A DNA stretch of 64,000 bases, taken from the IMG/VR virus record IMGVR_UViG_3300009370_000001; one strand, given 5' to 3'. The notes beneath the pieces are model-generated. The model worked only from the letters and a program-made list of their open reading frames with translations, ran no database searches and had not been told where the DNA came from. Each line of letters opens with the position of its first letter. Within the stretch, counting starts at the first letter, position 1. Below, one piece after another: positions 23,029 through 40,592 of this stretch. Both the position numbers and the translations under genes were made by a program. This DNA comes from a virus. Its lineage: Duplodnaviria; Caudoviricetes.

Positions 23029-23757
23029 ATGAAATTTTTAAGTATAGTACTCGGCGCGCTGTTAGTAAGTCCCACTCACGCCACCGAAATCATTAAAACC
23101 CACGATACTGACACCCGGACAATTGAGATAAGTTCGCAGATGTCTGACACTGAAATGGCCGTGCGGGGTGCCGCAGTGCGAGTAACGAGATTTGGAGAAG
23201 GCGGCCATGGCTCGGGTTCCCTGGTGCAGTATAAGGACGTCCAACTTGTTTTGACAGCCCAGCATGTAGCTGACGCCATTATTGGTACACCTTATCGTAT
23301 TACCCATGATGGTGAAATACGCGAAGGTATTTTAATATATTCAAATGAGGCACACGATATTGCAGTTTTATGGGTACAAGTGCCATGGCCACGTGGACAC
23401 GCACTAAAGTGGGATCCCACCACAGAAGTTGCTGAGGTGGGATCAAAAATAACTTATTCGGGCTTTCCCGGGCCACATAGTTTGATGACTTATCGTGGCC
23501 GTGTTGCGGGTTATGAGTTAATGCCTGATGGCTCTACTAACATTTTACTCCACACTTATGGATATTTTGGATGTTCAGGCGCCGTAATTTACAACGCAGA
23601 CAAAGAAATTGTAGGAATCCTATGGGGAATCGATAGAGGGCGTATTGCCCCTATAGAAGATATGATATGGGTATCTCCGATACAGAATTTAAATATTGAT
23701 TTATCATTGCGAGGATTGTGTCAGACATTACGTAATGAACCACGCGCATGCCGATGA
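23029..23757 (+). CDS. exported trypsin-like serine protease
   Basis: signal peptide; TAQH, HDIA, GCSG catalytic triad motifs. Confidence 0.85.
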   Translation: MKFLSIVLGALLVSPTHATEIIKTHDTDTRTIEISSQMSDTEMAVRGAAVRVTRFGEGGHGSGSLVQYKDVQLVLTAQHVADAIIGTPYRITHDGEIREGILIYSNEAHDIAVLWVQVPWPRGHALKWDPTTEVAEVGSKITYSGFPGPHSLMTYRGRVAGYELMPDGSTNILLHTYGYFGCSGAVIYNADKEIVGILWGIDRGRIAPIEDMIWVSPIQNLNIDLSLRGLCQTLRNEPRACR

Positions 23758-24209
23758 AATATTCATGGAAAGGCTTTCTTGGCGAAGGCAAAGAATCAGA
23801 AGTTGGAATTGTTGCTTGTCTAAACGATGAGCAACAATTTCTTATTTTAAGACGTTCAGAGATGGATGATCGAGCAGGGCAATGGACAATGCCGGGAGGA
23901 CATATTGATCCAGAAGACAGTTCTATAGAAGCCGGCACACTTCGAGAATTGAACGAGGAAGCTAATTTAACGTGTAAAATTAGTAATTTAATGTATTTGG
24001 GCTCTCCAAAAAAGAAAAAATACTATTTTTTGGCTCTTAAGTGGTCGGGAGAAGTAAGTGTAGATAAGCCAAATCCAAAAACTGACGAAATTGAACACGA
24101 TGACTACAAATGGGCAACAATTAATGAGATAAAAGACATTGACGATACTAATATTCCGATCTATTTACTGGAGAAAGCTTTAGAAATCCAAAAGGAAGGT
24201 GAAGAATGA
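23754..24209 (+). CDS. Nudix hydrolase with degenerate tag (MKYSWKGFLGE)
   Basis: Nudix box GGHIDPEDSSIEAGTLRELNEEANL. Confidence 0.9.
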   Translation: MKYSWKGFLGEGKESEVGIVACLNDEQQFLILRRSEMDDRAGQWTMPGGHIDPEDSSIEAGTLRELNEEANLTCKISNLMYLGSPKKKKYYFLALKWSGEVSVDKPNPKTDEIEHDDYKWATINEIKDIDDTNIPIYLLEKALEIQKEGEE

Positions 24210-24463
24210 GGTTTTTAACACTATTTTTGATGTTCTCGACCACTGCGATGGCAGACACGCCAGAAGAACCAACAAACGAGCGACAAATCGTTTACAAACA
24301 ACGCACAGAAATTGACTTTGAAGGTCTTGAAATCGAGGGAACACTCGTTCGACCTCAAGGCGCCCTAATCTTAGACAGAACGGCTGGATCATTTAATCCT
24401 CTTATCCGTTTAAGAATGGATTTCGAGCCAGAATTAAACAACTCGGTGAATTACATAAAATGA
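24206..24463 (+). CDS. cglF: adventurous gliding motility protein CglF/GltF-like
   Basis: signal peptide plus VYKQRTEIDFEGLEIEGTLVRPQG...FNPLIRLRMDFEPEL, matching the recalled CglF pattern. Confidence 0.75.
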   Translation: MRFLTLFLMFSTTAMADTPEEPTNERQIVYKQRTEIDFEGLEIEGTLVRPQGALILDRTAGSFNPLIRLRMDFEPELNNSVNYIK

Positions 24464-24557
24464 AAACTCTCGATAAAGCTTTAGAAGAACTTTCAGCCGC
24501 AGAACTGGCGGAATACGAAGAAGTCATCGAACTTTGGATTACATATGGTGGCGACTG

Positions 24558-25052
24558 ATGAAACTTATAATGGAAAATTGGCGGCGTTATTTAACAGAAC
24601 AAGAAGCTTCTTGGGGAGACTGGACAATTGAAGAACTCGAAGACTTAATTAAAAATGCTCGTGAAGAAGAGAATGTACAAGCCAAAAAATGGCTTGGGAA
24701 AACAATGGGTATTGAATTTATAAAACTCATTCCTGTTCTTGGTCACGCATTAACTGGAGGTGAGGTCTTGAGCGGTCTTTATAAGAAGCACAAGCGATCT
24801 GAGGCAGAATCCGATGATAATCCTGAAGATTTTCCAATTTTAGATATTTTAGACGTCGATCCTTATCTTATTCAAACACTCGATCAAGAAATTTTAAATA
24901 GTATTGATGAAGAATATGAAAAATATTTACATGGCTTGCCGGCCGGAACGCGCATAAAAGACATCACCGATATTAATGATTTTATTCGAGGAATCGTTGC
25001 GCGCCAAACGAAGAAGCATGTTACCATTGTTGATCAAAGCGGAGAAGGTTAA
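24558..25052 (+). CDS. tagged hypothetical protein (MKLIMENWRRYLTE)
   Basis: tag motif at the start; start corrected from the track. Confidence 0.7.
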   Translation: MKLIMENWRRYLTEQEASWGDWTIEELEDLIKNAREEENVQAKKWLGKTMGIEFIKLIPVLGHALTGGEVLSGLYKKHKRSEAESDDNPEDFPILDILDVDPYLIQTLDQEILNSIDEEYEKYLHGLPAGTRIKDITDINDFIRGIVARQTKKHVTIVDQSGEG

Positions 25053-27652
25053 TGATCAAGGTCCGTATTGGAAAAAAGAAATCGCATTGCGGCGAAGCCA
25101 AGAAAATAGGCTTTGGTCAGGGCACACCTCCAAAAGGTGAATGGTATAAGAAGCAAGAGATCGTCGTTGAAGACACAAAACTCCTCCGCGAACTCACTGA
25201 AGACGAGCTTGAGCGCGCGCTAGCTGCCGTCGAGGAAATCGATCCCGACGAATTGGCTTTTAACCAAATCTTTGGCGATAAAAAGCGCCTCGTTATTGAT
25301 TTTCCTGTCGCTAATTTAGATTCAGAAGCGGGACGCTTCATTAACATGTGGGGCGATCTGGATGATGTGGAGACCGGCAGCGGCTATAGCGCCGATTGGC
25401 AAAAAGGAATTATCTCAGGACTGCGCACTATCAAAGATGAAAGTCTTGTTGGTGTGCCTGCCGAGATAGAGCGCGCCGCGTTTGGTTTCGGTGGCGAGAA
25501 AGAAAAAGGCCCGAAACAGAAGAAAGTCCAAATGAAAATTGGAAAATTCTTTGCCAAAATACACGATTTAGCCACAAAGCGTCAAGAGATTATTCAACTA
25601 TATTGGAAAAAGCACCACGAAAAGCATTTTAAAGGCGACCGACCTTATAGAGGGGGCCAAGCAAACTTTTCTCACATTCCAGTCGGAGAGATCCGAGACC
25701 TAATTGGAGACGAAAAAGTGGAGCGTTACGATCAACTGACCAATCAGCTTAAAATGTATTTAGGCACCAAAGGAATGACCCGATTTGCCCAATTTCCAGA
25801 CACCGCCCTCCGCGCTGGCGAATACTGGCAGAAAAACGCAGGTTTTATTAAGAAAAACATCGACGGGATGACTAACGATAAATACGCCATCGTTATTACG
25901 CGTGATCCAGTCGATATGTTTCGCATGAGCGACTTCAATCAAATTACTTCATGCCACTCTCCACCATCAAGACCTTCGGAATCGGGCAATTCATATTATA
26001 AATGCGCGGTTGCTGAGGCTATGGGTCACGGAGCAGTCGCCTATGTAGTCGACAAGACCGATTTGCTGGCTGCTGCTGACGCTGAGGCGCTTCCAGAAGC
26101 AGAAGACAATATCCAGGAAGGAGAACTTTTTGCGGACGAGACACGGGGCTCTCACGTCGGTTATGAAATGGATCTGGTTCCGCTCTCGCGCATTCGTTTG
26201 CGTCAGTATCGCTATTACGACAGCACCGCTCTAGCAACTGACGCAGCAGACTATGCAAAACCTAGCATTGAAGGCGGCACACAACTGGCTGTGCCTGAAA
26301 TTGGAACCACACCATATGGTCTTAATATCCCAGGCTTCCTTGAACGCTTAGAAGGCTGGGCGAGAGAAAACCAGCAAGAGGCCATGACCCAAGTACCCAA
26401 GACGAGCAAAGGTAAAATAGAGTCGGGAGCCTTTGTACTTTATGGAGGAGCTTATGAAGAAGCTAGAACGAGCGGAGGCATGGGCCGCCGCAAAATGCTT
26501 GCAAGCTTTTTTGAAGTGCGCTTTGATGAAATGACAGGCGAGCCTCGACAAGACACGTCGACGGAACGCAAACTGCCAAAAGATATTGGAAAAGGAATAA
26601 TTGAGTTTACTGAAGAAGCAGTCGCACGAGTTGCGATGCAATGGAATGACTCTTGGCATCGGAGTTCACCCGGAACTGCCGAACACCCAGGCATGCAGGT
26701 CTTCGCCCGAGTAGAAGACATGGGACAAAACGAGGATGGCGGATATGATTTTGCTATCGAGGGATCCGCAGTGATGCGTGTATTTTGGGATGCCGATGAG
26801 TGGGAGAGGCTACCAAGAGCCGATGAGACAGATTGGATAGATCGCGAGGTTGCAGAATATGGCTTTGGCTTTGTTCAGGATTTAGTGGTCATTAGGCGTG
26901 GAGATATGATATATGCTAAATTCGATATTAACAATAATGGGGTTTATAATCTCTATCATTACGGTACGTCTATCGAAGTTGATTTAGTACATACTGGGGT
27001 AACTCACTCGCCAGACGGCTTCGAAGAATATTGTCTGGAAATTAACAAGATAGATGATGTTCGAGAAGGACTCAAGGCTGTTCTCTCCACCTTTTTTAAA
27101 CGCCAAGGCTGGCTTCAAGGGGGCGCCTACATGCAGTTAGCCATGGATATTGAAAACGACGAACTGACCTCTTATGAATGGGATCTCCGAACAGACGGAG
27201 AATATGAAGACTCCTATGAAGCCACCGCCACCGTTACACATGACTTTGATCCCGAAGAGTTAAATATCAATCCTGAAGTGTTATTGGGGATTCTTGAAGA
27301 CCGGGAATTTAGATTGCTGGTACGCACTCAATTCTTGCATGCGTTGCAGAAAACGACAGGCATAGACTTTCAGTTGGATATCGTGCCCGAGAAAGTAACG
27401 AATATTGGTGGGACGCTGCGGTTTCCATTTACTTTTCAAGTTACAGCCGATGACCCCACTGAACGTGTAGAATTATTTCGCGCTCTCGTTGAAGAGATCG
27501 ACGACGAAGATGATATTGCGGCGCGCTTCGAGAAAGCGATGGCTCACGCACTAAACAACATGAAGCCCGTAGCGTATCGACAGAATTTGGACGAGAACAA
27601 AAAATATGATGCCGATTGGGCACTAAAAAGATGGAAACAAAATTTTAACTAA
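25052..27652 (+). CDS. 866-aa acidic protein of unknown function
   Basis: long ORF; ITRDPVDMFRMSDF...SCHS segment. Confidence 0.8.
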   Translation: MIKVRIGKKKSHCGEAKKIGFGQGTPPKGEWYKKQEIVVEDTKLLRELTEDELERALAAVEEIDPDELAFNQIFGDKKRLVIDFPVANLDSEAGRFINMWGDLDDVETGSGYSADWQKGIISGLRTIKDESLVGVPAEIERAAFGFGGEKEKGPKQKKVQMKIGKFFAKIHDLATKRQEIIQLYWKKHHEKHFKGDRPYRGGQANFSHIPVGEIRDLIGDEKVERYDQLTNQLKMYLGTKGMTRFAQFPDTALRAGEYWQKNAGFIKKNIDGMTNDKYAIVITRDPVDMFRMSDFNQITSCHSPPSRPSESGNSYYKCAVAEAMGHGAVAYVVDKTDLLAAADAEALPEAEDNIQEGELFADETRGSHVGYEMDLVPLSRIRLRQYRYYDSTALATDAADYAKPSIEGGTQLAVPEIGTTPYGLNIPGFLERLEGWARENQQEAMTQVPKTSKGKIESGAFVLYGGAYEEARTSGGMGRRKMLASFFEVRFDEMTGEPRQDTSTERKLPKDIGKGIIEFTEEAVARVAMQWNDSWHRSSPGTAEHPGMQVFARVEDMGQNEDGGYDFAIEGSAVMRVFWDADEWERLPRADETDWIDREVAEYGFGFVQDLVVIRRGDMIYAKFDINNNGVYNLYHYGTSIEVDLVHTGVTHSPDGFEEYCLEINKIDDVREGLKAVLSTFFKRQGWLQGGAYMQLAMDIENDELTSYEWDLRTDGEYEDSYEATATVTHDFDPEELNINPEVLLGILEDREFRLLVRTQFLHALQKTTGIDFQLDIVPEKVTNIGGTLRFPFTFQVTADDPTERVELFRALVEEIDDEDDIAARFEKAMAHALNNMKPVAYRQNLDENKKYDADWALKRWKQNFN

Positions 27653-27663
27653 AGGAAGAGAAA

Positions 27664-28314
27664 ATGAGAAAGAGATTAATCGAAGCATGTGCATTTATGC
27701 TTTTGTTAGTAGCATGCACAACGTTAGTGTTTGGTATTGCAGGATGCAAGCCCAAGTTAACTACCGACGATAGCACAACCCCACCTATCCCCCAGGTAGA
27801 TGATTCTGCTATTACAATTTCCCCCACCGATAGCGATGATCGCTCTTGGGTAACTTGGGAGACTTGTTCACAAAAACCAGGAGATCATCCCTGTGATTTT
27901 GAATTGATGGATCAGCATGGAGATATGGTGAGTCTATACGATTATCACGGAAAGGTTATTGTAATTGATCTGTCAACAATTTGGTGTGGGGTGTGTAACA
28001 ACATCGCACAAGAAGGTGATGAGTGGCTCAATGATTATGGTGCGGAAAACTTTATCTGGCTAACTATCTTAATTGATAATGCTACAGGCGATCCTCCCAC
28101 ATTAGCTGATATCCAGCATTGGGCTACGGTATACGGCATCGAAGTGCCTGTGCTAGTAGGCGACCGAAGCTTAGTAGATCTAACCGCTGAAACGGGTTAT
28201 CCGTGCACCGGTTGGCCAACACTAGTTGTAATCGACCGAGAGATGGTTTTACAATACGGTATTAATGGATGGAATGAAACAACCATTCGTGGGTGGGTGC
28301 AAAGTCTGTTATGA
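27664..28314 (+). CDS. TlpA/redoxin-family lipoprotein
   Basis: lipobox IAGC; WCGVC; DFELMDQHG; GWPTLVVID. Confidence 0.85.
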   Translation: MRKRLIEACAFMLLLVACTTLVFGIAGCKPKLTTDDSTTPPIPQVDDSAITISPTDSDDRSWVTWETCSQKPGDHPCDFELMDQHGDMVSLYDYHGKVIVIDLSTIWCGVCNNIAQEGDEWLNDYGAENFIWLTILIDNATGDPPTLADIQHWATVYGIEVPVLVGDRSLVDLTAETGYPCTGWPTLVVIDREMVLQYGINGWNETTIRGWVQSLL

Positions 28315-28880
28315 TGTCCTTGTTGCTACTCTTGGGGTGCACCAACGCGCCTGTCATCGTAGTGCAAGAGACAACTACGCATGAAGAACGCCAACTCCAT
28401 AAAGTATCAGAGACTATTGATGCTTCGTTCTTTAATCGTGGCCCACAAAGTCAAGGAGGATGGCAGGGCACCCCCGACATCCGTGTGTGCACCACCGCAC
28501 CCATTTCTCAGCGGAGAGTAGAAAAAGGACTTGACTTTTGGCGAGAACTAGGTTATAGTTTTGGTAGGATATATTATAATGATGTATCGAGACATTGTAT
28601 TGAAGATATATTTTCATATAATACAATAATCATTGATTTGATTGACGGAACACACAGAGAGCCAGCGCTCGCCACCACAACGTCGTGGATTGACCGAGAA
28701 ACCCGAGAGATTTTGAAAGCCAAAATTGCGCTTAAAAATACATGGGGCGAAGCCGACCGAATTCTAGAACACGAGCTTGGGCATGCGCTAGGCTGGCTCG
28801 ACTATAATCAAACTGGTCATATTATGCACCACGAATGGAGTCGAGGAGGACTAAATACCATGGGAGTGGAAGTCCAATGA
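28311..28880 (+). CDS. matrixin-like zinc metalloprotease lipoprotein
   Basis: lipobox LLGC; HELGHALGWLD...HIM. Confidence 0.8.
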   Translation: MMSLLLLLGCTNAPVIVVQETTTHEERQLHKVSETIDASFFNRGPQSQGGWQGTPDIRVCTTAPISQRRVEKGLDFWRELGYSFGRIYYNDVSRHCIEDIFSYNTIIIDLIDGTHREPALATTTSWIDRETREILKAKIALKNTWGEADRILEHELGHALGWLDYNQTGHIMHHEWSRGGLNTMGVEVQ

Positions 28881-29506
28881 AACTTTTAATGGAAAATTGG
28901 CGAGAGTTTTTGAATGAGACCTCACCTCCTTTTGAAGAGATTCAATCTATTATTGATCAAAATCCTTATTTAAAAGGCAAAGTTAGTGCAACTGAGGAGA
29001 CAGTCTACGATATGGGGGATAAATATCTCCTGATGTCGGGGGTTTCCCACATAGCCGAGCGCCACCAAGATAAATGTTTTCCAGGCTCTCTTTTTCTCCA
29101 AGATGAGGAAGTGATAAAGAAAGCAATTCTCAATATTGTAGCCCAAATGCCCCCTGCGGAAGGAAAAGCGCTAGCTATGCCTTCGGGGATTTCTGGACTT
29201 GGAATGGAGAGATTAGTCAAAACAACACCTGAAGAAGTCGCCGGACTTGAAGATTACACGATGAATGATGGTACAATTGTTAAAATTAAACGCGAAGGCA
29301 ATAATCCCGGGCAAGTAACCGATAAATTAACAGTTATTGCTCCCTCTATTGGCAACATAGGTGGAAAGCCTCTACTTTCTCTAATAACTGCGTTTCCGGG
29401 TTTCATGGGAACTGGGCGCGGCGGTGACGGAGATATTGAGATCCTTGACCGCAGCGATTTTACAAAAAATGGATATTATTTTTTAATCCCAGAGGATTGT
29501 AAATGA
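28877..29506 (+). CDS. tagged protein with possible toxin-type RNase fold
   Basis: MKLLMENWREFLNE; HIAERH...SLF and ITAFP motifs. Confidence 0.5.
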   Translation: MKLLMENWREFLNETSPPFEEIQSIIDQNPYLKGKVSATEETVYDMGDKYLLMSGVSHIAERHQDKCFPGSLFLQDEEVIKKAILNIVAQMPPAEGKALAMPSGISGLGMERLVKTTPEEVAGLEDYTMNDGTIVKIKREGNNPGQVTDKLTVIAPSIGNIGGKPLLSLITAFPGFMGTGRGGDGDIEILDRSDFTKNGYYFLIPEDCK

Positions 29507-29949
29507 AACTCCTACTTGAAAATTGGCGGAAGTATTTGACGGAGACAATCGGATTAGACGATAATCCTGATTTATCACAAGACGGCTTTGAAACGGCAAA
29601 ATTGCCTATTCCCTTAGAATTTAGATATGCAGAAACAGACGAGACCATTGAAACAAAAGAAGGTCCAGTAAACGCAACCGCCGGCGATGCTATCATGACC
29701 GGCACTGAAGGTGAACAATGGCCGATCCCCGCAGAGAAATTTGCAGAGACTTATGATGATTTAGGCGACGGAACAGCCGCAAAGAAAAACATTCCTGTTT
29801 TTGCTAAAGAAATGGCTGAGCCCTTCCAAGTTAAAGTATCATGGTCAGATGATTTATTACAAGGCGAAGCAGGAGACTATTTAGTTCAATACGGCGTGGG
29901 TGACTACGGCGTTGTGGGCAGAGAAATATTTGGAAAAACATATAAATGA
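29503..29949 (+). CDS. tagged PGDYG-family protein
   Basis: MKLLLENWRKYLTE; TKEG...AGDAI...GEQWPI...F..TY duplicated; GDY. Confidence 0.8.
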   Translation: MKLLLENWRKYLTETIGLDDNPDLSQDGFETAKLPIPLEFRYAETDETIETKEGPVNATAGDAIMTGTEGEQWPIPAEKFAETYDDLGDGTAAKKNIPVFAKEMAEPFQVKVSWSDDLLQGEAGDYLVQYGVGDYGVVGREIFGKTYK

Positions 29950-30674
29950 AACTCCTACTTGAAAATTGGCGAGAGTTCATAAATGAAAACCAAGAAGGAT
30001 CTGGGCTGCTTTACCACGCCACCTTGTCTGGTGAGAATAACAGCATTGTTCGTTCATTTATTGATAACGGGATCGATCCAACGCGCGCTGGGGGCTTTGG
30101 TCAAGGTGGAGGCTTCTATCTTTGGACCGATATAAAGGATGCCCATCATTATATTAAAGGCTTGGTTTACGGCATGAAGGGCGCTTCGAAAGAGGAGGAG
30201 GTCGAAGGCAAGCCCATTATAGTAGTGGTTGACGAACCAGTTACTCCTCAAAACTTTGATATTGATTATGAACTGTATGCTAAGGGGCTTATTGGTTTTA
30301 TCGAAGGTAACCTTGATTACTTTAAACAAAATGGTGAAGCCCTAGGTATTATAACAAAAAAGCTTGACAGTCATTTGAGTGTTGATAAAAAAGCACTTGG
30401 CCTCCAGGGCGGGAGGAAGACTGTTGCTCGATGGGATTCTCGCGCTTCGTGGGATAGTGACATACATGGAGAAGACTACGGAATTGATATTGGCACTGGT
30501 GAACTGTTGGGAATGGTGGCATCTAAACTTCATGAATTGGACCCCACAAAATATGAAGAGTTTGAGAAGCAGGCTCTCCCGCCTGCCCGGGCTTTAAAAT
30601 ACAATGGCGAAACAAAGATTTGGCCATTACGCATTGAAGATGCCGAAGGCAATGTTCTGTGGAGCAGAGAATGA
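29946..30674 (+). CDS. tagged putative ADP-ribosyltransferase-fold protein
   Basis: MKLLLENWREFINE; LYHAT...NGID...GGGFYL (H-Y ART signature). Confidence 0.55.
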   Translation: MKLLLENWREFINENQEGSGLLYHATLSGENNSIVRSFIDNGIDPTRAGGFGQGGGFYLWTDIKDAHHYIKGLVYGMKGASKEEEVEGKPIIVVVDEPVTPQNFDIDYELYAKGLIGFIEGNLDYFKQNGEALGIITKKLDSHLSVDKKALGLQGGRKTVARWDSRASWDSDIHGEDYGIDIGTGELLGMVASKLHELDPTKYEEFEKQALPPARALKYNGETKIWPLRIEDAEGNVLWSRE

Positions 30675-31297
30675 AACTCCTACTTGAAAATTGGCGGAAG
30701 TTTTTAAACGAGAAAAAATGGGAAGACTTTGATCATCCCAAGAATCAATGGGCCGATGTTTCACCCAGTGATATCAAAGCCGCACAACATCCGATTAATG
30801 TAGACTTATCTGATGAATTATATGATCTGATTGATGTTGCATATGCTGCCATAGGAGGCAATTTTGATTTTGCTAACTCTGGCGATCTTCCTGGCGATCA
30901 TGATCAGTGGGGAGCTATTGACATCGATGATGATCCGGAACCAGATGCACTTCGTGTTTCCAAAACAAAGCCGGCCGGCTCAAAGATGACTGTCGCAGGT
31001 CATGACGGGTCCAAGTCTGGAAAAGATGCCTATATTAGCAGGACTGCCGAATTATTATCACAACCGGGACACTATGCGGAAATGTCCAAGAAAATTGCGG
31101 ATATTATGATAAAATATTATGATATCCCGGCGGTCACCGACCCCGAAAAAGTACAGCAAGTATTGGGTCCTAATAAGTCTATCAAATGGCTCGGACCCCA
31201 CCCAGAAGGAAAGCATCCTGGCATTGACGGCTGGTATACGAGAGACATCGGTCCCAATAAAGATATTCTCAAGATTATGCTTGGGAATCCAAAATGA
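30671..31297 (+). CDS. tagged protein, possible GNAT-like fold
   Basis: MKLLLENWRKFLNE; AYAAIGG...GHDGSKSGK. Confidence 0.45.
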   Translation: MKLLLENWRKFLNEKKWEDFDHPKNQWADVSPSDIKAAQHPINVDLSDELYDLIDVAYAAIGGNFDFANSGDLPGDHDQWGAIDIDDDPEPDALRVSKTKPAGSKMTVAGHDGSKSGKDAYISRTAELLSQPGHYAEMSKKIADIMIKYYDIPAVTDPEKVQQVLGPNKSIKWLGPHPEGKHPGIDGWYTRDIGPNKDILKIMLGNPK

Positions 31298-31743
31298 AAA
31301 TTCTATTTTTACACGGACTTGAATCAACCCCAGGCGGAAGAAAGCCCACGACCATCTCAGATGCTGGCTACGAAGTGATTGAGCCAATTCTTCCTGCGAA
31401 CAGTTGGAACGATAGTATCAGCGCAGCCCAAGAGGCATATGATGAAGAACAACCAGATATCATAGTTGGTTCGTCCCGGGGAGGAGCAGTTGCTATGGCC
31501 GCTAATCTTCCTGCACGTAAAATGATTTTAATTGCGCCGGCGTGGAAAAAGTATTGCCCTGGTTGTACTATTGCTCCCAATACAATTATTCTTCATTCGC
31601 CTGATGACGAGGTAATAGCCTTTGCAGACAGCAGACTATTGTCGAAGATGTTCGGCGCCGAACTAGTTATAGCGGGCGATGACCACCGCATGAATGATAG
31701 CGGAGCATTGGCTAAGATGATGCAGGCAATAGATAACTCATGA
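31294..31743 (+). CDS. alpha/beta hydrolase (YqiA-like esterase)
   Basis: FLHGLES, GSSRGG nucleophile elbow, DDEVI, DH. Confidence 0.85.
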   Translation: MKILFLHGLESTPGGRKPTTISDAGYEVIEPILPANSWNDSISAAQEAYDEEQPDIIVGSSRGGAVAMAANLPARKMILIAPAWKKYCPGCTIAPNTIILHSPDDEVIAFADSRLLSKMFGAELVIAGDDHRMNDSGALAKMMQAIDNS

Positions 31744-31775
31744 AACTCCTACTTGAAAATTGGCGAGGGCTATAA
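31740..31775 (+). CDS. 11-codon ORF consisting only of the tag (MKLLLENWRGL)
   Basis: exact 26-nt repeat copy followed by TAA, then the next ATG. Confidence 0.5.
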   Translation: MKLLLENWRGL

Positions 31776-33221
31776 ATGGCAATAACTCTAGAATATATGA
31801 GGCGTAAACAAAAACAACTGGAAAGAAAAATGCGGCGCGAAGCTGAATTGGAAGCTGAAAAAGAGGCAGAACGAGTTGCTGAGATAGAGGCCGAACTTCG
31901 CGAACAGGAAGAAATTGCTGCAAGGGCGCGCCTTCTTGTGGAACAACAGGAAGATAAGCGCCTTCATCAGAGGTATCTTAAAAGAAAGCAAAAAATAGCA
32001 GATCAAAAATGGGATAACCAGTTTGACGCTTTAATGACTCAGATAAAAAATCAAACCCAAAAGGATAATAAGCTTGAAGAAATAAGGTTTATAATCCAAA
32101 ATCGCGAACCCTCTCTTCAACAGCTTGATTGGGATACGTGGTTATCCGTTCCTTTCAATCAAAGGCTCGCTGAATTGGATTTTGAGCGGGCGATGGAAAT
32201 GTTTAAGCGCGATAATCTAATGTCTGCACGGCGTAAGAAAACGCGCGGGAAGTCTCCCAAGATCGATGCTGCTGTTAATTATGCATTATCATTCACTGGC
32301 AATGATGCAGTAGGCGCCCGCGCAGATTTGGTCGCAACATCGTTTACTCCTAATGATCCTACAAATAAAGGCTTTTCAAGTTCTGACAGAAAACCACTTG
32401 CAGAATCAGGATTTACTATATCATTTTGGTGGAGACCAGACCAAAACTATCAGGATTCATTTCCTATTGGCTGGAAAAGAGATACACATGCCAGATTTGA
32501 CTTTGGAATAAGAAATGCATCAAAACCATGGTTTGGTTTAGGCAGTTCAGAATTAAAAGGCGTAACTTGGGAAACTATGTTTGATGATTCAGGTAATTCA
32601 GATTTAAAAAACACATTATTGGATAGTGGCGAAGGAACAGACCCCGGCTCTGGTAATCATTTAATACTGGGTAAATGGTATCATCTTGTAGCAACATATG
32701 CAGGTACTGATAATCCTGATGGTGATGGTTACATGCTCCGTAAAATATATTTAAATGGATATCACATATATGGGGGATTTGGTGAAGCAAAGCAATCTGT
32801 GAACTGGACGAGCCACACTGGCGCTCAGATGGCCCGGGGTTTAGCTTTTGGTATGCGCGTAGTAGTAGCTTCAGGAACGGACTCAGAATCAGGACTAAGA
32901 AATGCTAAATATAACAACGGAAACGCATGTGGGCTTGATGAAATAGCTATTTATAGTGAAGCCAAAGATGCCGATTGGGTTACGAATGTATATAATGGTG
33001 GTGTGGATTACAATCATAAAGATTCGGGCGGCGATGGTCTTGTAGGATATTGGAGACTTAATGAAGGTAATGGAAATACTGTTAAAGATTTATCAGGATA
33101 TGGTTGGCACGGAACATTCACTAATGCTTCATACGGAACAAAGATTGATGCCGCTATAGCCGATCTACCACCTTCAGGAACACCAACTTGGATCAAGGTA
33201 CCAACAGGATACGGTCAATAA
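31776..33221 (+). CDS. coiled-coil plus LamG/concanavalin A-like domain protein
   Basis: FTISFWW, WYHLVATY, IYLNG, LDEIAIY, LVGYWRLNEG. Confidence 0.85.
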   Translation: MAITLEYMRRKQKQLERKMRREAELEAEKEAERVAEIEAELREQEEIAARARLLVEQQEDKRLHQRYLKRKQKIADQKWDNQFDALMTQIKNQTQKDNKLEEIRFIIQNREPSLQQLDWDTWLSVPFNQRLAELDFERAMEMFKRDNLMSARRKKTRGKSPKIDAAVNYALSFTGNDAVGARADLVATSFTPNDPTNKGFSSSDRKPLAESGFTISFWWRPDQNYQDSFPIGWKRDTHARFDFGIRNASKPWFGLGSSELKGVTWETMFDDSGNSDLKNTLLDSGEGTDPGSGNHLILGKWYHLVATYAGTDNPDGDGYMLRKIYLNGYHIYGGFGEAKQSVNWTSHTGAQMARGLAFGMRVVVASGTDSESGLRNAKYNNGNACGLDEIAIYSEAKDADWVTNVYNGGVDYNHKDSGGDGLVGYWRLNEGNGNTVKDLSGYGWHGTFTNASYGTKIDAAIADLPPSGTPTWIKVPTGYGQ

Positions 33222-33805
33222 TGAAACTCCTACTTGAAAATTGGCGACGATTTTTAAATGAGGAGCAGGAGTACGAGATTTACTGTGACATGGATGGTGT
33301 GCTTGTAGACTTCGAATTAGGGGCCGTAGAGCACATCACAAGCGACTTAAAAAGCGGAAAGGCTTCCGAGCTAGAGGAAGAGCTTGGACGCGATTATATC
33401 ACCGCTGAGGATATTAGGTCAAATAAGTCCGTTAGAAATTATATGTACAAAGAATTAGAACATAACGCAGAATTTTGGGAGAACTTGCCTTGGATAGAAA
33501 ATGGTCCCGAATTGTGGGCCGCAATTGCTCCATATAATCCGAATATATTAACAACCCCTATGGGATATGGATCCGAAATTGGCAAACAAGCTTGGATTGA
33601 TAAAAACTTAAGCCCCCTCCCCCAACAAGTTTTTATGTCGAGAGATAAATATCGCTGGGCCGATAAAAATAGTATTTTGATCGATGATTGGACAAAAAAC
33701 ACCATTCCTTGGGAAGAACACGGCGGCATAGCTATTTTACATCGAGATTCAGACATAGAAAAAACACTGTCAACACTGCAGGAACTCGGACTGCAAACTA
33801 ATTAA
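33221..33805 (+). CDS. tagged HAD-family 5'(3')-deoxyribonucleotidase
   Basis: MKLLLENWRRFLNE; CDMDGVLVDF; LIDD. Confidence 0.88.
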   Translation: MKLLLENWRRFLNEEQEYEIYCDMDGVLVDFELGAVEHITSDLKSGKASELEEELGRDYITAEDIRSNKSVRNYMYKELEHNAEFWENLPWIENGPELWAAIAPYNPNILTTPMGYGSEIGKQAWIDKNLSPLPQQVFMSRDKYRWADKNSILIDDWTKNTIPWEEHGGIAILHRDSDIEKTLSTLQELGLQTN

Positions 33806-34147: not shown

Positions 34148-34161
34148 TAGCTATTTATCAT

Positions 34162-34833: not shown

Positions 34834-34981
34834 GACACTATATATTCTTTATCAATTTGATATGAACAAAGACGAATTAGTGTCTGATGGCCCTTATTTA
34901 AAAAAGGAAGAAGCTTATAATCACATGCACGGTTTTTTGAAGAAAGGTATATGTGCCTGGGTAGTCGTCTATAATGGATGA
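34823..34981 (+). CDS. hypothetical protein
   Basis: start corrected to MKGKTLY. Confidence 0.5.
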   Translation: MKGKTLYILYQFDMNKDELVSDGPYLKKEEAYNHMHGFLKKGICAWVVVYNG

Positions 34982-35234: not shown

Positions 35235-35579
35235 ATGAAATCGATTATAGACCATATAGCCCTTAAAGTTGAGGATCTAAAGATCGCAGAAGAGTGGTAT
35301 TGCAACAATTTAGATGCTGAAGTCACTTTTCGAGATAAAAAGTACACAAGATTAAAGGTAGAAAATACTAACATTGCCTTAATCGACAAAAAATACTATC
35401 CTTGGGAGCATATTGCAATTTTGATAGAGAACAAAGAGGATTTGCCTCATGATTTAGGAAAAACTATAGAACATCGCGATGGAACGGTGGGAGTTTATGT
35501 AAAAGACCCATTTGGTAACTATTTAGAGTATATCTGGTACTCTGAAGAGCAAAAAAAGGTATTTTTAGATAATGATTGA
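35235..35579 (+). CDS. VOC/glyoxalase-family protein
   Basis: IDHIALKVEDL...YVKDPFGNYLEY. Confidence 0.88.
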   Translation: MKSIIDHIALKVEDLKIAEEWYCNNLDAEVTFRDKKYTRLKVENTNIALIDKKYYPWEHIAILIENKEDLPHDLGKTIEHRDGTVGVYVKDPFGNYLEYIWYSEEQKKVFLDND

Positions 35580-36522
35580 TATTATTAATCCGATGATTAA
35601 GCAATTTATGCCTTTTGCACAGGAAAAAATGGGTTTTCACAAGCCCCCTAAATTGTTTTTGCGTGGATCTCCTAAGAACGCTGCTAACCCACTGGGGAAA
35701 ACGGCATTCTATGATCCTGCCGCACAAGCTATTACCATATATATTACAGATCGTCACCCTAAAGACGTTATGAGGTCACTATCACACGAATTAGTACACC
35801 ATACACAAAACTGTCGGGGTGACTTTGACAATGTCGGAGAAATGGGTGAAGGATATGCCCAAAACGACGAATATCTGCGCGAAATGGAGCGCGAAGCATA
35901 CGAAAAAGGAAATATGTGCTTTCGAGACTGGGAAGACAGCATCAAAAGTACTATTTATTTTGAACATCTACAAAAAGGAGCTAAGAAAACGATGTCTACT
36001 AAAGAATGGAGAAATGGAGAATTAACCACGATTCTCTCAGAAGCTTTTGGTTTTAAGTTTAATCTTGACCATCTTACTGAGGAACGAACTGGTTCAGGAA
36101 TCGATCACGGTGGTGACGATGATGAAGAGGCTGAGGAAGAGACCGAAGGCACAGCCGATAGCAAACGCGAAGAAAAAGGTCTTCGTGATGAAGGACAAGT
36201 TTCAAGCGGTCGCAATGGGCCAAATGACAGGCGCCCAGATCCACGGAAGCGTCCGATGGAAGAGGAAGAAGAGCCTTGGGGAATGGATACGGTTAAAGAT
36301 CCGAAGCCCCACAAGCGCCAGGATACCCTTGCACTCCCCGCTCGTAAAAAATGTGAGGATGGTTCGAAACCTGATCGACGAACGGGCAACTGCCCTGATG
36401 AGCGTGTACAGGTCGATTATCGAGCGTCCCCCTACGGACTTGAAGAAAAAGCTGAAATTACTGAGGTTCAAATCCGCGAAGCTGCCAAACGTGTTTTGGC
36501 TCGGCTCAAAGGAGGAAAATAA
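35572..36522 (+). CDS. zincin metallopeptidase with acidic C-terminal half
   Basis: HELVH plus downstream EREAY; internal RBS and ATG at 35992. Confidence 0.75.
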   Translation: MIDIINPMIKQFMPFAQEKMGFHKPPKLFLRGSPKNAANPLGKTAFYDPAAQAITIYITDRHPKDVMRSLSHELVHHTQNCRGDFDNVGEMGEGYAQNDEYLREMEREAYEKGNMCFRDWEDSIKSTIYFEHLQKGAKKTMSTKEWRNGELTTILSEAFGFKFNLDHLTEERTGSGIDHGGDDDEEAEEETEGTADSKREEKGLRDEGQVSSGRNGPNDRRPDPRKRPMEEEEEPWGMDTVKDPKPHKRQDTLALPARKKCEDGSKPDRRTGNCPDERVQVDYRASPYGLEEKAEITEVQIREAAKRVLARLKGGK

Positions 36523-36816
36523 ATGGGAAAATCATGGAAAAGACGCTGGAACGCCGCCCGGTTGGCCTCGTATAACACTACTACGACTGACACGGTTACA
36601 ACTACGGCACCAGAAGTAGAGACAATCACAGTAGAAACAACGACTCCCATAGTGGAAGCGACAGCGGCAGAGGAAAAAACAACTTCCCCTCAAACCACTA
36701 CAAAGAAAAAGACAACTACTTCGACTCGTACTGCCCGAAAAAAGGTAACCAATACAACAAAACGCCAAACACGCAAGAAAACCACTACTACCGAAGCCAC
36801 AACTCACACTACTTAA
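36523..36816 (+). CDS. Thr/Lys-rich low-complexity protein
   Basis: GGAGG RBS. Confidence 0.65.
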   Translation: MGKSWKRRWNAARLASYNTTTTDTVTTTAPEVETITVETTTPIVEATAAEEKTTSPQTTTKKKTTTSTRTARKKVTNTTKRQTRKKTTTTEATTHTT

Positions 36817-36830
36817 AGGAATAAGCAAAA

Positions 36831-37088
36831 ATGTCGTTAAATAAAGTCTGGAATGATTTCTTACTGAATGAAAATCTTCAAGATAAAAATATTTTTACTT
36901 ATTTGCAAGGTTTAGAAGAAATAATCTCCAATATTAAGCCAAAATCGATGACAGAAGAGCGTCGTTTGTCTTTGGCGAGGCAGCATCTGAAAGAAGCTCG
37001 CAGATCTGCACGCAGAATGCAAAACGAACTCCAAGTTCTAGAAGAAAGGCTTAATGTATTGGAAGAAAGCCTAAACGAGGGCTCGTAA
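36831..37088 (+). CDS. coiled-coil protein with tag-like start (VWNDFLLNE)
   Basis: AAGGA RBS; LxE motifs. Confidence 0.65.
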   Translation: MSLNKVWNDFLLNENLQDKNIFTYLQGLEEIISNIKPKSMTEERRLSLARQHLKEARRSARRMQNELQVLEERLNVLEESLNEGS

Positions 37089-39013
37089 TGGGTGGTGCGG
37101 CGGGCCATATGGCTCATCCCTTCGATTTGGGATGGGTAAACTCGGGTTCTGACCTCTTAGATTTCTTTGAGAAGGCAAAAACCTATGTTGAGAAGAAGGG
37201 CGCTGGCTCCGTCAAGATAGATGGCGTCAATGTATCGTTCAAAGTGGTCGGAGACGACGAAAACAAGCAATTTGCGGTTGATCGCGGCTCCTTAAAGCCA
37301 ATAGACATCGATGGAATTACGATGGACCGCGTTGATGACCGTTTTCCAGAAGGCCACGGCATGCGGCCGGCGATCCGGACCCTTTTGACCATTTTAAATG
37401 AAGCTTTGCCCGATATTCAACAAGAATTAGAAGAATTAGGCATGTGGGACGACCCATCGCGCTTTTTAAACACCGAATATGTCGCCGGAACGACAAATGT
37501 GACTCAATATGATGAAAATTTCCTTGCAATTCACGGATTAAGCCAATTTTATCAAAAAACCGCTAAATCTGGACCCAGCAAAGGAAATATACGCCCTGGA
37601 ATGGCGCGCCCGGAAGGAGTAAAGGCTCCAAGCGTCGAAGTGGCCTATGATCCTCAAACAATGGACAAATTAGTCACGAAACTCAATTCTGTAGCCGAAA
37701 ACTACGGTTTTAAGGTATATGGCTCCGTTCCAACCGAAAAAATCGACGAAATCGACTTTTCATCGACTTTATCGCAACCTTTTACAGTAAACGTGTCTCC
37801 TGATCGCCAAATCACTAAATCTTTGGAAGAATGGTTGCGCGAAGTCCAAAATCCACGTTATAAAGTGGTCAAATTAAAAGATGGGACCAAAATACACTCT
37901 CTACATAAACAACTTTATCTTAATATCTTAAATGGAGAGACCCCAGTGGTAGATTTACTTGATCAGGCAGATGCGCAAGATGCTATTTATGGTGCAGTGC
38001 TGATGCACGCCACTCGAATGCTTGGAAATGATGTTATGAAGGCCCTGACAAGCCCGATGGGCGATGTAATGAACCATGAAGGTATTGTTATGCGAGATGA
38101 GAAACTTTTTGGACCAAATCCTGTCAAAATCACCGGAGACTTTATTGTTGGTAACCTCGGAGGCGGATTTGGACAGGTCACTGAAGAAGAAGAAGAAATA
38201 GAGGTCATCGACAACGAAGATGCAGATCCTGTGGGAGAATTTGCTGGTGGTGAAACGGTTGCTATTGTCCCCGGCGCATTTAAGCCGCCACACCGCGGCC
38301 ATCTTGCAATGGTAGAACAATATGCCGATGAAGCAGACCGTGTAATAGTGTTAATTTCAGCCCCTGTGTTAGCAGGTAGAAAACTACCTAATGGGCGCGA
38401 AATTACTGCTGCAGATTCTCAAAAGATTTGGGAATTGTATGTTGATCACTTACCAAACGTTGAAGTAGAGATTTCCTCGCATGCTTCTCCCATAAATGCA
38501 GCTTATGAATATGTTGGAGAGGAAGGACCACTCAATGCGGGCGATAGTGTTATTCTCGGCTGCAGCAAAAAGGATTGTGATTGGAAACGATGGATGGGCG
38601 CTGAAAAATATATTAAAGATGGGGTAAGCCTGCTACCGCCCGAAGGTGTTTCCCCGACATATCGGGATAATGGTGAGCCATTTAGTGCTACCGAAATGAG
38701 AGACTTGCTTGGGCGCGCACAAGAAGACTCAGATGCAATTGAAGAATTAGAAGAATTTACCGGCGAAGATAATGTTTTTGATGTTTTGTCTATTTTGGGC
38801 CTAAATGTTGGTTTAAGTGAGATGTCTTCAATGGGTGGCGGGGCCGTCCAAGGTGCAGCCGTAGGAGCCAAGGGAGGACCTTGGCGCCACACTGATATTG
38901 AAGCCGAGAACGAAAAAGAAAAGAAACGTAGTAGACTTAAAAAAGAAAATATAGATTTATCTATGGTTGATGAAGTAATGAGACTATTTATGGAAAGAGG
39001 GATTATCCAATGA
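37088..39013 (+). CDS. RNA-ligase-like nucleotidyltransferase fused to a HxGH cytidylyltransferase-like domain
   Basis: KIDGVN, EGIVMR, VKIT; PGAFKPPHRGH. Confidence 0.7.
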   Translation: MGGAAGHMAHPFDLGWVNSGSDLLDFFEKAKTYVEKKGAGSVKIDGVNVSFKVVGDDENKQFAVDRGSLKPIDIDGITMDRVDDRFPEGHGMRPAIRTLLTILNEALPDIQQELEELGMWDDPSRFLNTEYVAGTTNVTQYDENFLAIHGLSQFYQKTAKSGPSKGNIRPGMARPEGVKAPSVEVAYDPQTMDKLVTKLNSVAENYGFKVYGSVPTEKIDEIDFSSTLSQPFTVNVSPDRQITKSLEEWLREVQNPRYKVVKLKDGTKIHSLHKQLYLNILNGETPVVDLLDQADAQDAIYGAVLMHATRMLGNDVMKALTSPMGDVMNHEGIVMRDEKLFGPNPVKITGDFIVGNLGGGFGQVTEEEEEIEVIDNEDADPVGEFAGGETVAIVPGAFKPPHRGHLAMVEQYADEADRVIVLISAPVLAGRKLPNGREITAADSQKIWELYVDHLPNVEVEISSHASPINAAYEYVGEEGPLNAGDSVILGCSKKDCDWKRWMGAEKYIKDGVSLLPPEGVSPTYRDNGEPFSATEMRDLLGRAQEDSDAIEELEEFTGEDNVFDVLSILGLNVGLSEMSSMGGGAVQGAAVGAKGGPWRHTDIEAENEKEKKRSRLKKENIDLSMVDEVMRLFMERGIIQ

Positions 39014-39831
39014 AAGCTGAGCAAGAGCAAATCTTAAGAGAGAATATAAGACAGTTAATTGAAGTTGTCAAGCAAAAAAGAAGTACAGTCCAAGAAACAC
39101 TGTTATTAGAAGAAGAACGCCTCCGCGGGATCGTTAGAGACTTAATTGATGTTGAACTCCAATCGCTCCGCGAGGATACTACCCCTGACAACGACCCGGT
39201 GCCCAATAAGTCTACTGGCATTAACGTTCTCGAAGATCTTTTGAAGAAAATTATTCCTGTCCTAGAGACTGATTATAAATTACTTACTACCGATGCCGAA
39301 CAGCGCCAATCATTCCGCGCGCATGTTATTAATGCTGTAGTTGATGCCTTAACACCTGCTGAAGTTAATAATGAGGCTGGTGAGGAGGTTGCTGCAGCGG
39401 ATGCACTAGAAGAAGAAGTAGATATAGCTATTGGCGATGAAGATAAGTTTATCGATATTCGAACTGATGCAGAAAAAAGTGCTGATGATGAAGAAGTCGA
39501 AGAGGACCCCCGCGATGGTTTTGGCGTCGCCGGCGAAGATGAAACTGGACGCAATGTAGCTTATAATGCCTTTAAAAAGATTCAAACTTCAATTATTGAT
39601 TCTTATGAATTATTATCTAATCCTGAAGACCAAGAATTGTTTTATGATTATTTGATCGCCAATCTTAAATTGTATTTTGATAAATTCGAAGGCGAATTGG
39701 CGCCAGACGTAGAAGAGCCCACAAATCAAGCCTATGACGATGCTAAGAGCGAAGAAGGCGATATGGGCGCGCCAGATGACACTGAGATGGATTTCGGTGG
39801 TGATGAAGAAGAGATAGAATTAGAATTATGA
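39010..39831 (+). CDS. highly acidic protein, head core/scaffold-like
   Basis: D/E-rich; multiple LxE motifs. Confidence 0.6.
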   Translation: MKAEQEQILRENIRQLIEVVKQKRSTVQETLLLEEERLRGIVRDLIDVELQSLREDTTPDNDPVPNKSTGINVLEDLLKKIIPVLETDYKLLTTDAEQRQSFRAHVINAVVDALTPAEVNNEAGEEVAAADALEEEVDIAIGDEDKFIDIRTDAEKSADDEEVEEDPRDGFGVAGEDETGRNVAYNAFKKIQTSIIDSYELLSNPEDQELFYDYLIANLKLYFDKFEGELAPDVEEPTNQAYDDAKSEEGDMGAPDDTEMDFGGDEEEIELEL

Positions 39832-40592
39832 AAATTTTAATGGAGAATTGGCGCCAATTTATAGAACATGGCGCGTCGACACCTGAGAATGGAAAAATAT
39901 ATCTTTTCGAAGATGAAAAGATCACAGAAGCATCTTTTAGCATAAGATTAAATCTATTAACAGAATCCACCACAGAGATAGAAGGCTTTTTGCGAGAATG
40001 GGAGACGTCTGCCGATTATGTGTTAAGCAAGAATGTTCTTAATGAGGGCGTAATGGATTTAGTTTCTCAGGCGGCTGCAGTGTTGAAAACACTCGCAGAG
40101 AAATCTTGGGATACGGTCACAAGTGTCACTTCAAAAGTTTTAAATTTTATTGAGAAATTTAAAGAAAAACACCCCAAAATATATAGCGCCCTCAAATGGG
40201 CCTGTATAGCAATAATATGTATAGCGGCACTTTATCTAATAGCCAAAGCCACAGGAATGACAGCTGTTGTCCAAGCTATGGAATCACTTGCTACATTCCA
40301 ATGGCCCGATGTAGCAATTTCTGAATTGGTAAGAGATCTAACCAACCAACAGACAGTAGATGCTCTTCGAAACCTACAAGACGCATTATTAAATCGAGCA
40401 GGAGACATAGGAGTAGATCTGGTGCAAAGTGATCATCAAATCCTTCAGGATCTAGGAGATAAAATCTTAGATTCTATTCCATCGGAGCAGTCGGCTGAAG
40501 CAGTATCGGATTTCTGGGGTCAGGCGATGGAACGGTTACAGCAAGGCGCCCAGGCCGGCACGGGACAAATTGAGACCTTCACTCCAAATTAG
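39828..40592 (+). CDS. tagged protein with central TM helix
   Basis: MKILMENWRQFIE; WACIAIICIAALYLIA. Confidence 0.7.
   Translation: MKILMENWRQFIEHGASTPENGKIYLFEDEKITEASFSIRLNLLTESTTEIEGFLREWETSADYVLSKNVLNEGVMDLVSQAAAVLKTLAEKSWDTVTSVTSKVLNFIEKFKEKHPKIYSALKWACIAIICIAALYLIAKATGMTAVVQAMESLATFQWPDVAISELVRDLTNQQTVDALRNLQDALLNRAGDIGVDLVQSDHQILQDLGDKILDSIPSEQSAEAVSDFWGQAMERLQQGAQAGTGQIETFTPN

Follow-up and report, generated by a model that had tools for sequence, protein, structure and literature searches.

A portable fourteen-residue leader on unrelated enzymes of uncultured marine phages as a candidate T4-type capsid-targeting signal

The internal proteins of bacteriophage T4 are small and basic, and the genes of two of them, ipII and ipIII, both begin with MKTYQEFIAE in the T4 record NC_000866 and are identical over about 32 leading bases, while ipI begins with MKTFKEF...ITE. 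IPIII needs no more than its ten N-terminal residues to enter the head, and within this capsid-targeting sequence (CTS) residues 4 and 7 (Tyr and Phe) are chiefly responsible for targeting and residues 8 and 10 (Ile and Glu) for processing, the cleavage site of gp21 lying after L/I-x-E (PMC9026906). The CTS may allow T4-like phages to load varied proteins (PMC9026906), and the internal proteins of the T-even phages have been described as diverse anti-defence proteins with only the CTS in common (PMC3012670). Herein, a stretch of 64,000 nucleotides from a virus of the Caudoviricetes (IMG/VR record IMGVR_UViG_3300009370_000001; the whole 64-kb stretch is termed the window) is analysed, in which unrelated enzymes share a 14-residue N-terminal leader, M-K-L-L-[L/F/M]-E-N-W-R-x-[Y/F]-[L/I]-x-E, referred to as the tag. 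At a probability of about 0.57, judged from sequence and from the analogy with T4, this leader represents a new sequence family of T4-type, protease-cleaved capsid-targeting leaders, and its carriers would form an uncultured clade of marine T4-like myoviruses.

Seven full open reading frames (ORFs) of the window are headed by MK[LI][LI][LM]ENWRx[FY][LI]xE (Table 1). When a 14-column hidden Markov model (HMM), trained on tags from other contigs, was run on the six-frame translation of the window, these seven ORFs scored 21-29 bits with E <= 2e-5, and the next match in the window reached 7.5 bits. The original prediction had counted at least eight tagged ORFs, and the eighth of them turned out to be an 11-codon stub in front of an untagged gene. 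Its statement that five copies are identical over 26 nucleotides (nt) was borne out, as five occurrences of the 26-mer ATGAAACTCCTACTTGAAAATTGGCG were counted in the window, with 0 expected (none in 100 shuffles). The tag as an observation is real and far beyond chance. Moreover, BLAST clustering placed the seven tagged bodies into seven separate, mutually unrelated clusters, in keeping with the claim that unrelated domains follow the tag.

Among the functional calls made for these bodies, those of a PGDYG protein, a nucleotidase and, behind a shorter leader, a Nudix hydrolase were confirmed by profile matches (Table 1), and the proposed transmembrane (TM) protein at 39828 possesses a single TM-like hydrophobic segment from residue 118. 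The ADP-ribosyltransferase (ART)-like call for 29946 is supported by fold matches that are weak, yet all belong to the ADP-ribosyltransferase superfamily (Tpt1/KptA, tankyrase, PltA, cholera toxin A, DarT and ART-PolyVal), whereas the toxin-RNase-like call for 28877 came down to an Atlas match to an RNAse_A_bac cluster at 0.86, which is a lead only. Pfam and PHROG searches with the 24558 body returned no match. The GNAT-like call for 30671 is unsupported, given the lack of an Atlas match and the quality of its structure model (pLDDT 49; Table 1). Homologues of 29946 with bodies only about 40% identical are still tagged, and two distant homologues with additional C-terminal domains are devoid of the tag.

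Table 1. Positions of tagged ORFs, leader variants and promoter-like motifs in the window (aa, amino acids)
Position	Strand	Feature	Evidence or remark
19448..19958	+	two ACTATTTA motifs (19448, 19951)	left edge of the tag-bearing block; late-promoter-like by comparison with genome G001
23748..24209	+	Nudix hydrolase with short leader MKYSWKGFLGEG from ATG 23754, preceded by MP	PF00293, 1.8e-17
24558..25052	+	tagged ORF, 164 aa (MKLIMENWRRYLTE...)	HMM 26.4 bits; abuts the 866-aa ORF
28877..29506	+	tagged ORF, 209 aa (MKLLMENWREFLNE...)	tag HMM; weak toxin-type RNase lead
29503..29949	+	tagged ORF, 148 aa, PGDYG domain at residues 54-148	PF14083, 2.3e-18
29946..30674	+	tagged ORF, 242 aa, ADP-ribosyltransferase-like fold (LYHAT...GFY...DYE)	AlphaFold2 (AF2) model, predicted local distance difference test (pLDDT) 77; weak fold matches
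30671..31297	+	tagged ORF, 208 aa	tag HMM; no Atlas match; AF2 model with pLDDT 49
31740..31775	+	tag stub, 11-codon mini-ORF MKLLLENWRGL followed by TAA	ATG of the next gene directly after, at 31776
31776..33221	+	untagged 481-aa gene, coiled coil and Laminin_G_3	PF13385, 5.7e-07; positioned for translation coupled to the stub
33221..33805	+	tagged ORF, 194 aa, 5'-3' deoxyribonucleotidase (HAD)	phrog_2643, 2.3e-24
36831..37088	+	85-aa ORF with short leader MSLNKVWNDFLLNE	late-promoter-like ACTACTTA 23 nt upstream
38983..38990	+	ACTATTTA motif	27 nt ahead of the 39010 ORF, after which comes the tagged 39828 ORF
39828..40592	+	tagged ORF, 254 aa (MKILMENWRQFIEH...)	HMM 21.2 bits; no Glu at position 14

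The portability of the tag extends far beyond the window. A degenerate DNA pattern for MKLLLENWR, which fixes residues 1-9 and leaves the later residues free, was scanned over the IMG/VR contigs and found in more than 117 viral stretches, many of them with several side-by-side copies, on contigs of up to 204 kb. From 117 viral loci and the window, 242 tag ORFs were extracted, and the 231 ORFs of at least 60 aa fell into 96 groups without mutual BLAST similarity (55 of the 96 being singletons), whose members include a HAD_SAK_1-like phosphatase, NT5C-like nucleotidases, 2H phosphoesterases (tRNA_lig_CPD), protein kinases, an RNase T-type exonuclease, PGDYG and ART-like proteins. In addition, a profile of 40 tags and 30 columns, searched against 1.84 billion cluster representatives at E <= 0.001, yielded 1,360 protein clusters, and among the best 150 the tag begins at residue 1-3 in nearly all. 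Complete genomes harbor 1-8 canonical tags each, five of them in the genome G001, while the reversed control pattern gave none. The scan of further contigs that had been advised thus depicts a portable element confined to viral contigs.

Outside of viruses the tag is rare. The same pattern, scanned over 596 Gb of prokaryotic contigs, hit ten stretches, of which only four carry real tags, all on short contigs (1.5-11 kb) of metagenome-assembled genomes (MAGs); in two of these four, the N-terminus of the nucleotidase is near-identical to that of the window. The tagged MAG contigs are probably mis-binned phage DNA, and the remaining matches are due to chance, for example within a gene resembling that of glucose-6-phosphate dehydrogenase. 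With four such contigs in 596 Gb, the tag is not common in non-phage cytosolic proteins, an occurrence that the original prediction had named as speaking against a packaging role. Among cultured phages, no tag was retrieved when three tagged proteins and a 20-residue tag peptide were compared with 50,697 phage records by tblastn, the peptide query being near the limit of sensitivity. The nucleotidase of Flavobacterium phage immuto aligns from residue 1, but its leader differs (MKKVMGNLADLLLEE). A search of the literature found no description of the motif, or of CTS-like tags in marine or metagenomic phages.

The anatomy of the tag is what brings it close to the CTS of T4. At the positions left free by the search pattern, 93% of copies have Y or F at position 11, 95% have L, I, V or M at position 12 and 81% have E at position 14, while W8 was set by the pattern and yet is retained in the short variants described below. 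The conservation ends at position 14, from which only an acid-rich linker follows. The tags that lack E14 are often shifted by one residue with the motif restored (...ILIKE, ...ILTE, ...MLKE), and [LIVM]-x-E with its Glu at positions 13-17 is found in 212 of 232 copies (91%). Residue by residue, the two aromatic targeting residues of T4, Y4 and F7, correspond to W8 and Y/F11 of the marine tag, and the processing residues I8 and E10 correspond to L/I12 and E14; the spacing is identical, with two aromatics three apart and then Ile/Leu-x-Glu closing the leader. The claim that the tag is an amphipathic packaging signal ending in an L-x-E cleavage site therefore gains from this spacing, from the 91% figure and from the predicted detached helix described next, whereas packaging, cleavage and injection are steps that we infer from the T4 precedent.

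In the AF2 model of 29946 the tag forms a helix over residues 2-15, followed by a coil at residues 16-21 and by the first strand from residue 22, and the best fold match in the AlphaFold DB starts only at residue 21. Meanwhile, the orthologues of the 33221 nucleotidase in phages Melnitz and HTVC008M are untagged, and their alignment begins only at residue 12-20 of the window protein. The helix and linker outside the fold match, together with these untagged orthologues, indicate that the tag is an add-on to complete domains. A secretion or lipoprotein signal peptide was excluded, as the tag is amphipathic and charged (E6, R9, K10 and E14) and is without a hydrophobic h-region of at least 10 residues; true signal peptides head neighbouring untagged genes, for example 21376, 23029 and 27664. 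The same architecture bears on the notion of a control function, in which the tag would serve as a pro-sequence or degron that holds potentially toxic enzymes inactive or short-lived until it is removed or recognised by a protease of the phage or the host, and sets the timing rather than the location of their action. Several bodies are toxin-like (the ART-like fold and the RNase-like lead), and the tag does close with a protease-type site followed by a flexible linker. However, a 14-residue helix on a linker, outside the fold match, is unlikely to inhibit about 100 unrelated folds, C-terminal and internal copies do not suit an N-degron, and the T4-like precedent for exactly this architecture is targeting plus cleavage, so that a control peptide is regarded as very improbable.

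At the level of DNA the tags are conspicuously uniform, which raises the question of what is under selection. The codons preferred in the tag, CTC-CTA-CTT and CGA, account for 9-22% of usage elsewhere in these genomes, and CTC, CTA and CGA reach 53%, 62% and 53% within the tags against 9-18% genome-wide. Furthermore, the 26-mer of the window recurs identically in other genomes, five times in G002 (C1; 114406, 116175, 118723, 147869 and 148093) and once in G011 (C1; 67555), so the copies appear, from sequence comparison, to evolve in concert or to pass between genomes. Such features would suit a repeat that works chiefly at the level of DNA or RNA, where it would either link gene cassettes for recombination or supply them with a shared translation start, with the peptide as a by-product. 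On the other hand, all six Leu codons are used at Leu3-5 and all six Arg codons at Arg9 while the residues are fixed, positions 11, 12 and 14 are conserved despite varied codons, and internal copies exist without a start codon. The DNA 5' of the tag ATG contains only an ordinary Shine-Dalgarno sequence and is otherwise unconserved, and the folding energy of the start regions is no stronger for tagged genes than for other genes (-5.8 versus -5.8 kcal/mol). An RNA hairpin, or sequestration of the Shine-Dalgarno sequence by the CTCC of the tag, was ruled out in view of this folding energy and of the lack of a common structure. Taken together, the synonymous codon variety, the plain upstream DNA, the equal folding and the displaced copies imply that selection acts on the peptide, and the nucleic-acid explanation is very improbable; both it and the control peptide are held to be less likely than the docking helix considered below. 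By analogy with ipII and ipIII of T4, the DNA identity may be read as homogenisation by recombination among copies, a secondary property, and since the tag DNA is nearly identical between copies, it can double as a homology patch for swapping or adding cargo cassettes.

The stub at 31740 is instructive in this context. Its layout is repeated in two relatives, L134 (13104-13139) and L096 (reverse strand), which read MKLLLENWRGM-TAG-ATG, and its first 27 bases are unchanged in both, though the surroundings are only 77% identical to the window; a decayed 7-codon form is present in L026. This preservation, in a place suited to hand ribosomes to the next gene, counts in favour of a nucleic-acid element. 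A one-off insertion footprint was ruled out by the recurrence of the stub-stop-ATG layout. The stub is consistent with homogenisation of the DNA but is not a fresh scar, and it may persist as a coupled upstream mini-ORF for the Laminin_G gene.

Two degenerate copies that the original prediction had placed at 23754 and 36831 received no score from the tag HMM in the six-frame window, and their support comes instead from the leaders of orthologues. About 20 Nudix orthologues in related contigs start with MKYxWNxFLTEGE (pattern M..W[NK]xFLTEGE, 11 residues to the Glu), two further ones bear a full MKLL[LF]ENW... tag in the same position, and one is without any leader. The 36831 family was found in 23 loci, where the orthologue in L113 starts with MSLDKQWRDFLNE, and the G001 homologues of the window Nudix and of the 866-aa protein begin with MKGYVKAWKEFLEEA and MMKMNFNNWREFLAEA. 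These short leaders on the Nudix and 36831 families reduce the core element to W-[RKN]-x-[FY]-[LI]-x-E, and from the orthologue sequences both copies are taken as real members of a wider leader family. The tag-like segment that had been seen at the end of the 866-aa ORF fared worse, since its likeness is weak and it received no HMM score. Displaced copies do exist elsewhere: in the metagenomic proteins P0039-P0048 and P0106 the motif appears a second time, lacking Met-Lys, where two domains meet or at the very C-terminal end, for example ...GESLLFENWRRFLNEEH... and ...RLFDNWRNYLKEDKNETPT-end, and these proteins look as if adjacent tagged genes had been fused, or as if they were arranged like polyproteins. 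Another style of leader, MKKSQLRQIIKEAL and MKKQILSEQFRRMQ...ITE, was noticed on several unrelated proteins of the cultured relative immuto (L123, NC_055915: 110436-113946), with MADEQTLPLRNLRYLIREAL at 19458 of the window, and it may be a further dialect of the same system.

A cleaved leader calls for a protease, and a gp21-type enzyme had been proposed as a thing to look for. A Peptidase_S77 (T4 gp21) prohead protease was detected in seven of the seven tag-bearing genomes that are at least 83% complete, namely G001-G005 (complete, 181-204 kb), G010 (83% complete) and G011 (complete), and most of the tag-bearing fragments are without it, as expected of fragments. The nearest cultured proteases, 44-56% identical, are those of Microcystis phage Mel-JY01, Flavobacterium phage immuto, cyanomyoviruses and Methylophilales phage Melnitz. 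A Gp23-family capsid protein is encoded in all five of G001-G005. Several L-x-E sites occur in the capsid propeptides, one of them (ELLRE) immediately ahead of the conserved N-terminal region of the mature protein. Separately, it was observed that the capsid propeptides of G001-G005 (L154, L153 and L155-L157) begin with MS[IV]L.KLTEG and contain ALL.KWE.TGLLEG, which is tag-like by eye. The idea of the tag as a copy of the capsid propeptide helix (G001, ...ALLTKWERTGLLEG...) was dropped, since the tag HMM gives capsid and head proteins no rank in G001.

An eight-base motif suggests when the tagged genes are expressed. In G001, 28 copies of ACTAYTTA lie on the + strand against 3 on the - strand, and the motif is placed 20-50 nt upstream of the scaffold gene and of several tail-type and other late-looking genes (119336, 116770, 122740, 108759, 101533 and others). 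One copy, at 6506, is found one small ORF before the tag cluster, and another directly upstream of the degenerate-tag gene 94610. In the window the motif is intergenic at 19448, 19951, 36808 and 38983 and falls three times within genes; a control for the distance to ORFs was not discriminating (79% versus 63%). By eye, the placement ahead of the head and tail genes of G001 is convincing, and ACTAYTTA looks like the late promoter of this clade in place of TATAAATA of T4, which suggests late expression of the tagged genes.

Combined with the T4 precedent, the data above allow a mechanism to be proposed, under which the tag most likely packs enzymes into the virus particle. The leader would fold as a short amphipathic helix on a flexible acid-rich linker, and the aromatic pair of W8 and Y/F11 would dock the cargo on the scaffolding core during prohead assembly. 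Subsequently, the gp21-family prohead protease would cleave after the Glu of the terminal [L/I]-x-E, leaving a mature enzyme that may stay free in the head and exit with the DNA at infection. Binding to the core, cleavage, presence in the virion and ejection are thus modelled on T4. A complex prediction between the first 45 residues of a tagged G001 protein and the gp22-like scaffold of G001 scored 0.00, which counts neither way. It is conceivable, although rather tentative and short of an even chance, that this ocean T4-like clade employs one 14-residue code, with shorter dialects, as both address label and recombination linker, the tagged genes being loaded, trimmed and delivered. If so, the virions would carry an exchangeable first-strike kit drawn from more than 1,000 protein families, including ART-like enzymes, kinases, RNA-repair enzymes, nucleotidases and Nudix hydrolases. 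The further statement that any enzyme acquiring the tag becomes an injected effector exceeds the evidence; the original interpretation is partly supported, its sequence-testable parts all having come out favourably.

Several observations weigh against capsid targeting. Twenty of the 232 tags (about 9%), that of 39828 in the window included, are without a nearby [LIVM]-x-E. L-x-E is a short motif. No significant sequence homology of the tag to MKTYQEFIAE was detected, and the likeness to the T4 CTS lies in the pattern MK...Ar-x-x-F-[IL]-x-E only. In G001, the matches of the tag HMM include neither the capsid propeptide nor other head proteins. The protease link for the window's own phage rests on relatives, of which G011 shares the gene island. 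The enrichment of ACTAYTTA in the window is weak, with 8 copies versus 3.8 expected and 4 of 100 shuffles reaching 8. The mature cargo is mostly acidic, with a median isoelectric point (pI) of 4.9 and 78% below 6, versus 5.6-5.8 for the long ORFs of these genomes. Finally, a dNMP nucleotidase and a Nudix hydrolase would have no obvious use once injected.

Some of these points can be accommodated by the main rival, in which the tag would be a helix that gathers many enzymes on one phage or host scaffold in the infected cell instead of the capsid. This hub might be a complex for nucleotide metabolism, RNA repair or replication, a membrane site or a chaperone, and nothing would be packaged or injected. 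Much of the cargo consists of cytoplasmic nucleotide and RNA enzymes (NT5C, Nudix, 2H phosphoesterase, HAD_SAK-like, kinase and exonuclease) and is acidic, unlike the T4 internal proteins; internal and C-terminal copies suit a position-independent binding motif; and the tag genes reside in a conserved island with an RNA-ligase/NMNAT-like gene, distant from the head genes. A hub, however, leaves unexplained the near-invariant [LI]-x-E at the end of the conservation, kept even in the variants shifted by one residue, as well as the spacing match to the mapped T4 CTS. Moreover, no hub gene is specific to the tag-bearing phages, the DUF6647-like neighbour being encoded also by phage immuto, for which no canonical tag was observed, and the internal-protein genes of T4 are likewise distant from the head genes, beside a tRNA cluster. 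Docking to such a hub is accordingly considered unlikely, and capsid targeting is retained as the preferred explanation.

The surroundings of the tagged genes are conserved where the cassettes themselves are variable. Tag cassettes are located among island genes that recur in 23-40 of 118 loci and encode a Nudix hydrolase, the 866-aa protein, a secreted trypsin-like protease, a small coiled-coil protein, a DUF6647-like HExxH protein, the 85-aa protein and a 641-aa ligase-like/cytidylyltransferase-like protein; an acidic protein of the island is present in 19 loci. Both G011 and the fragment G012 possess the island of the window, about 70% identical in nucleotides. A dedicated partner or modifying enzyme beside the tags, similar to those of ribosomally synthesized and post-translationally modified peptides or linked to radical S-adenosylmethionine chemistry, was ruled out by clustering the neighbours in 118 loci, none of which is specific. 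The commonest untagged neighbour, the DUF6647-like protein (40 loci), occurs also in immuto, inside a large protein and with no canonical tag seen there, and in two cyanophages. The 641-aa protein (window 37088-39013) possesses a ligase-like KxDG motif and a cytidylyltransferase/NMNAT-like HxGH domain and adjoins the DUF6647-like HExxH protein (35572-36522); in immuto the counterparts of these two are joined in one 908-aa protein annotated as NMN adenylyltransferase.

Apart from the tags, five untagged genes of the block (21376-22983, 23029-23757, 24206-24463, 27664-28314 and 28293-28880) have signal-peptide- or lipoprotein-like N-termini, which is unusual for a phage, and this exported-type set comprises an immunoglobulin-like repeat protein, a trypsin-like protease, a small protein, a thioredoxin/AhpC-like protein and an HExxH protein. 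The window has 43% G+C, and its long ORFs lie almost all on the + strand. A full-length tmRNA gene with the tag peptide ANNNNNFESVRLAA is situated just past the tag-bearing block (41159-41580, +), and four tRNA genes were located at 1956, 3419, 3947 and 49230. The window also encodes PIN-PhoH and a MoxR-type AAA_5 ATPase adjoining a DUF2201 VWA-like gene. A run of sugar-modification genes at 54227-63636 (GT4 and GT2 glycosyltransferases, an NAD-dependent epimerase, a GT29 sialyltransferase-like protein and a CMP-sugar cytidylyltransferase) suggests, on its annotations, phage-encoded synthesis of a sialic-acid-type glycan. By its gene content, the window looks like part of a large phage genome.

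Should the loading of tagged proteins prove true, the capsid-targeting trick of T4 would be a general, evolvable system in abundant uncultured marine phages, with a cargo repertoire two orders of magnitude above the three internal proteins of T4 and far more enzymatic. It would furthermore offer more than 1,300 candidate injected effectors to be mined for anti-defence and host-takeover functions, and provide a small tag of natural origin by which foreign proteins could be packed into T4-like capsids.

In comparison with known loading systems, the cargo-loading peptides of encapsulins are likewise short and portable and load unrelated enzymes into an HK97-fold shell. They are usually C-terminal, bind the shell itself and are not known to be removed by a protease, and the compartment is without DNA; no encapsulin gene is involved in the marine tag system. 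The Dar system of phage P1, which is not T4-like, is not known to have a shared cleaved consensus leader, and packaging needs dedicated Dar and Hdf proteins. Its likeness to the marine tags consists in an N-terminal segment that serves as packaging address for injected, defence-countering proteins (PMC9024508). Giant phages, although of a lineage other than T4-like, resemble the present case in that their cargo is large, diverse and partly enzymatic. Their propeptides are long and protein-specific and are not known to include one portable 14-residue tag. In phiKZ, 201phi2-1 and SPN3US, many head or inner-body (ejection) proteins are loaded into the head and trimmed by gp21-related proteases behind a short motif whose last residue is Glu (PMC9026906, PMC5694885).

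Against T4 itself, the differences are considerable. The marine tag has 14 residues instead of 10, its additional N-terminal segment MKLLLEN supplying a second L-x-E; 1-8 canonical copies per genome plus short variants, with more than 1,000 cargo clusters overall, stand against three T4 internal proteins; the cargo is mostly acidic and enzyme-sized where the T4 internal proteins are small and basic; and internal and C-terminal copies exist in the marine system. In both systems, nevertheless, a short MK-initial N-terminal leader is common to unrelated proteins of one phage, and the DNA of paralogous leaders is the same, over 26 nt in five copies here and over about 32 nt in ipII and ipIII. In both, the genes are distant from the head genes and near tRNA genes, and a gp21-family protease is encoded, here in relatives. 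The leader family would thus be a new version of the T4 CTS rather than a new principle.

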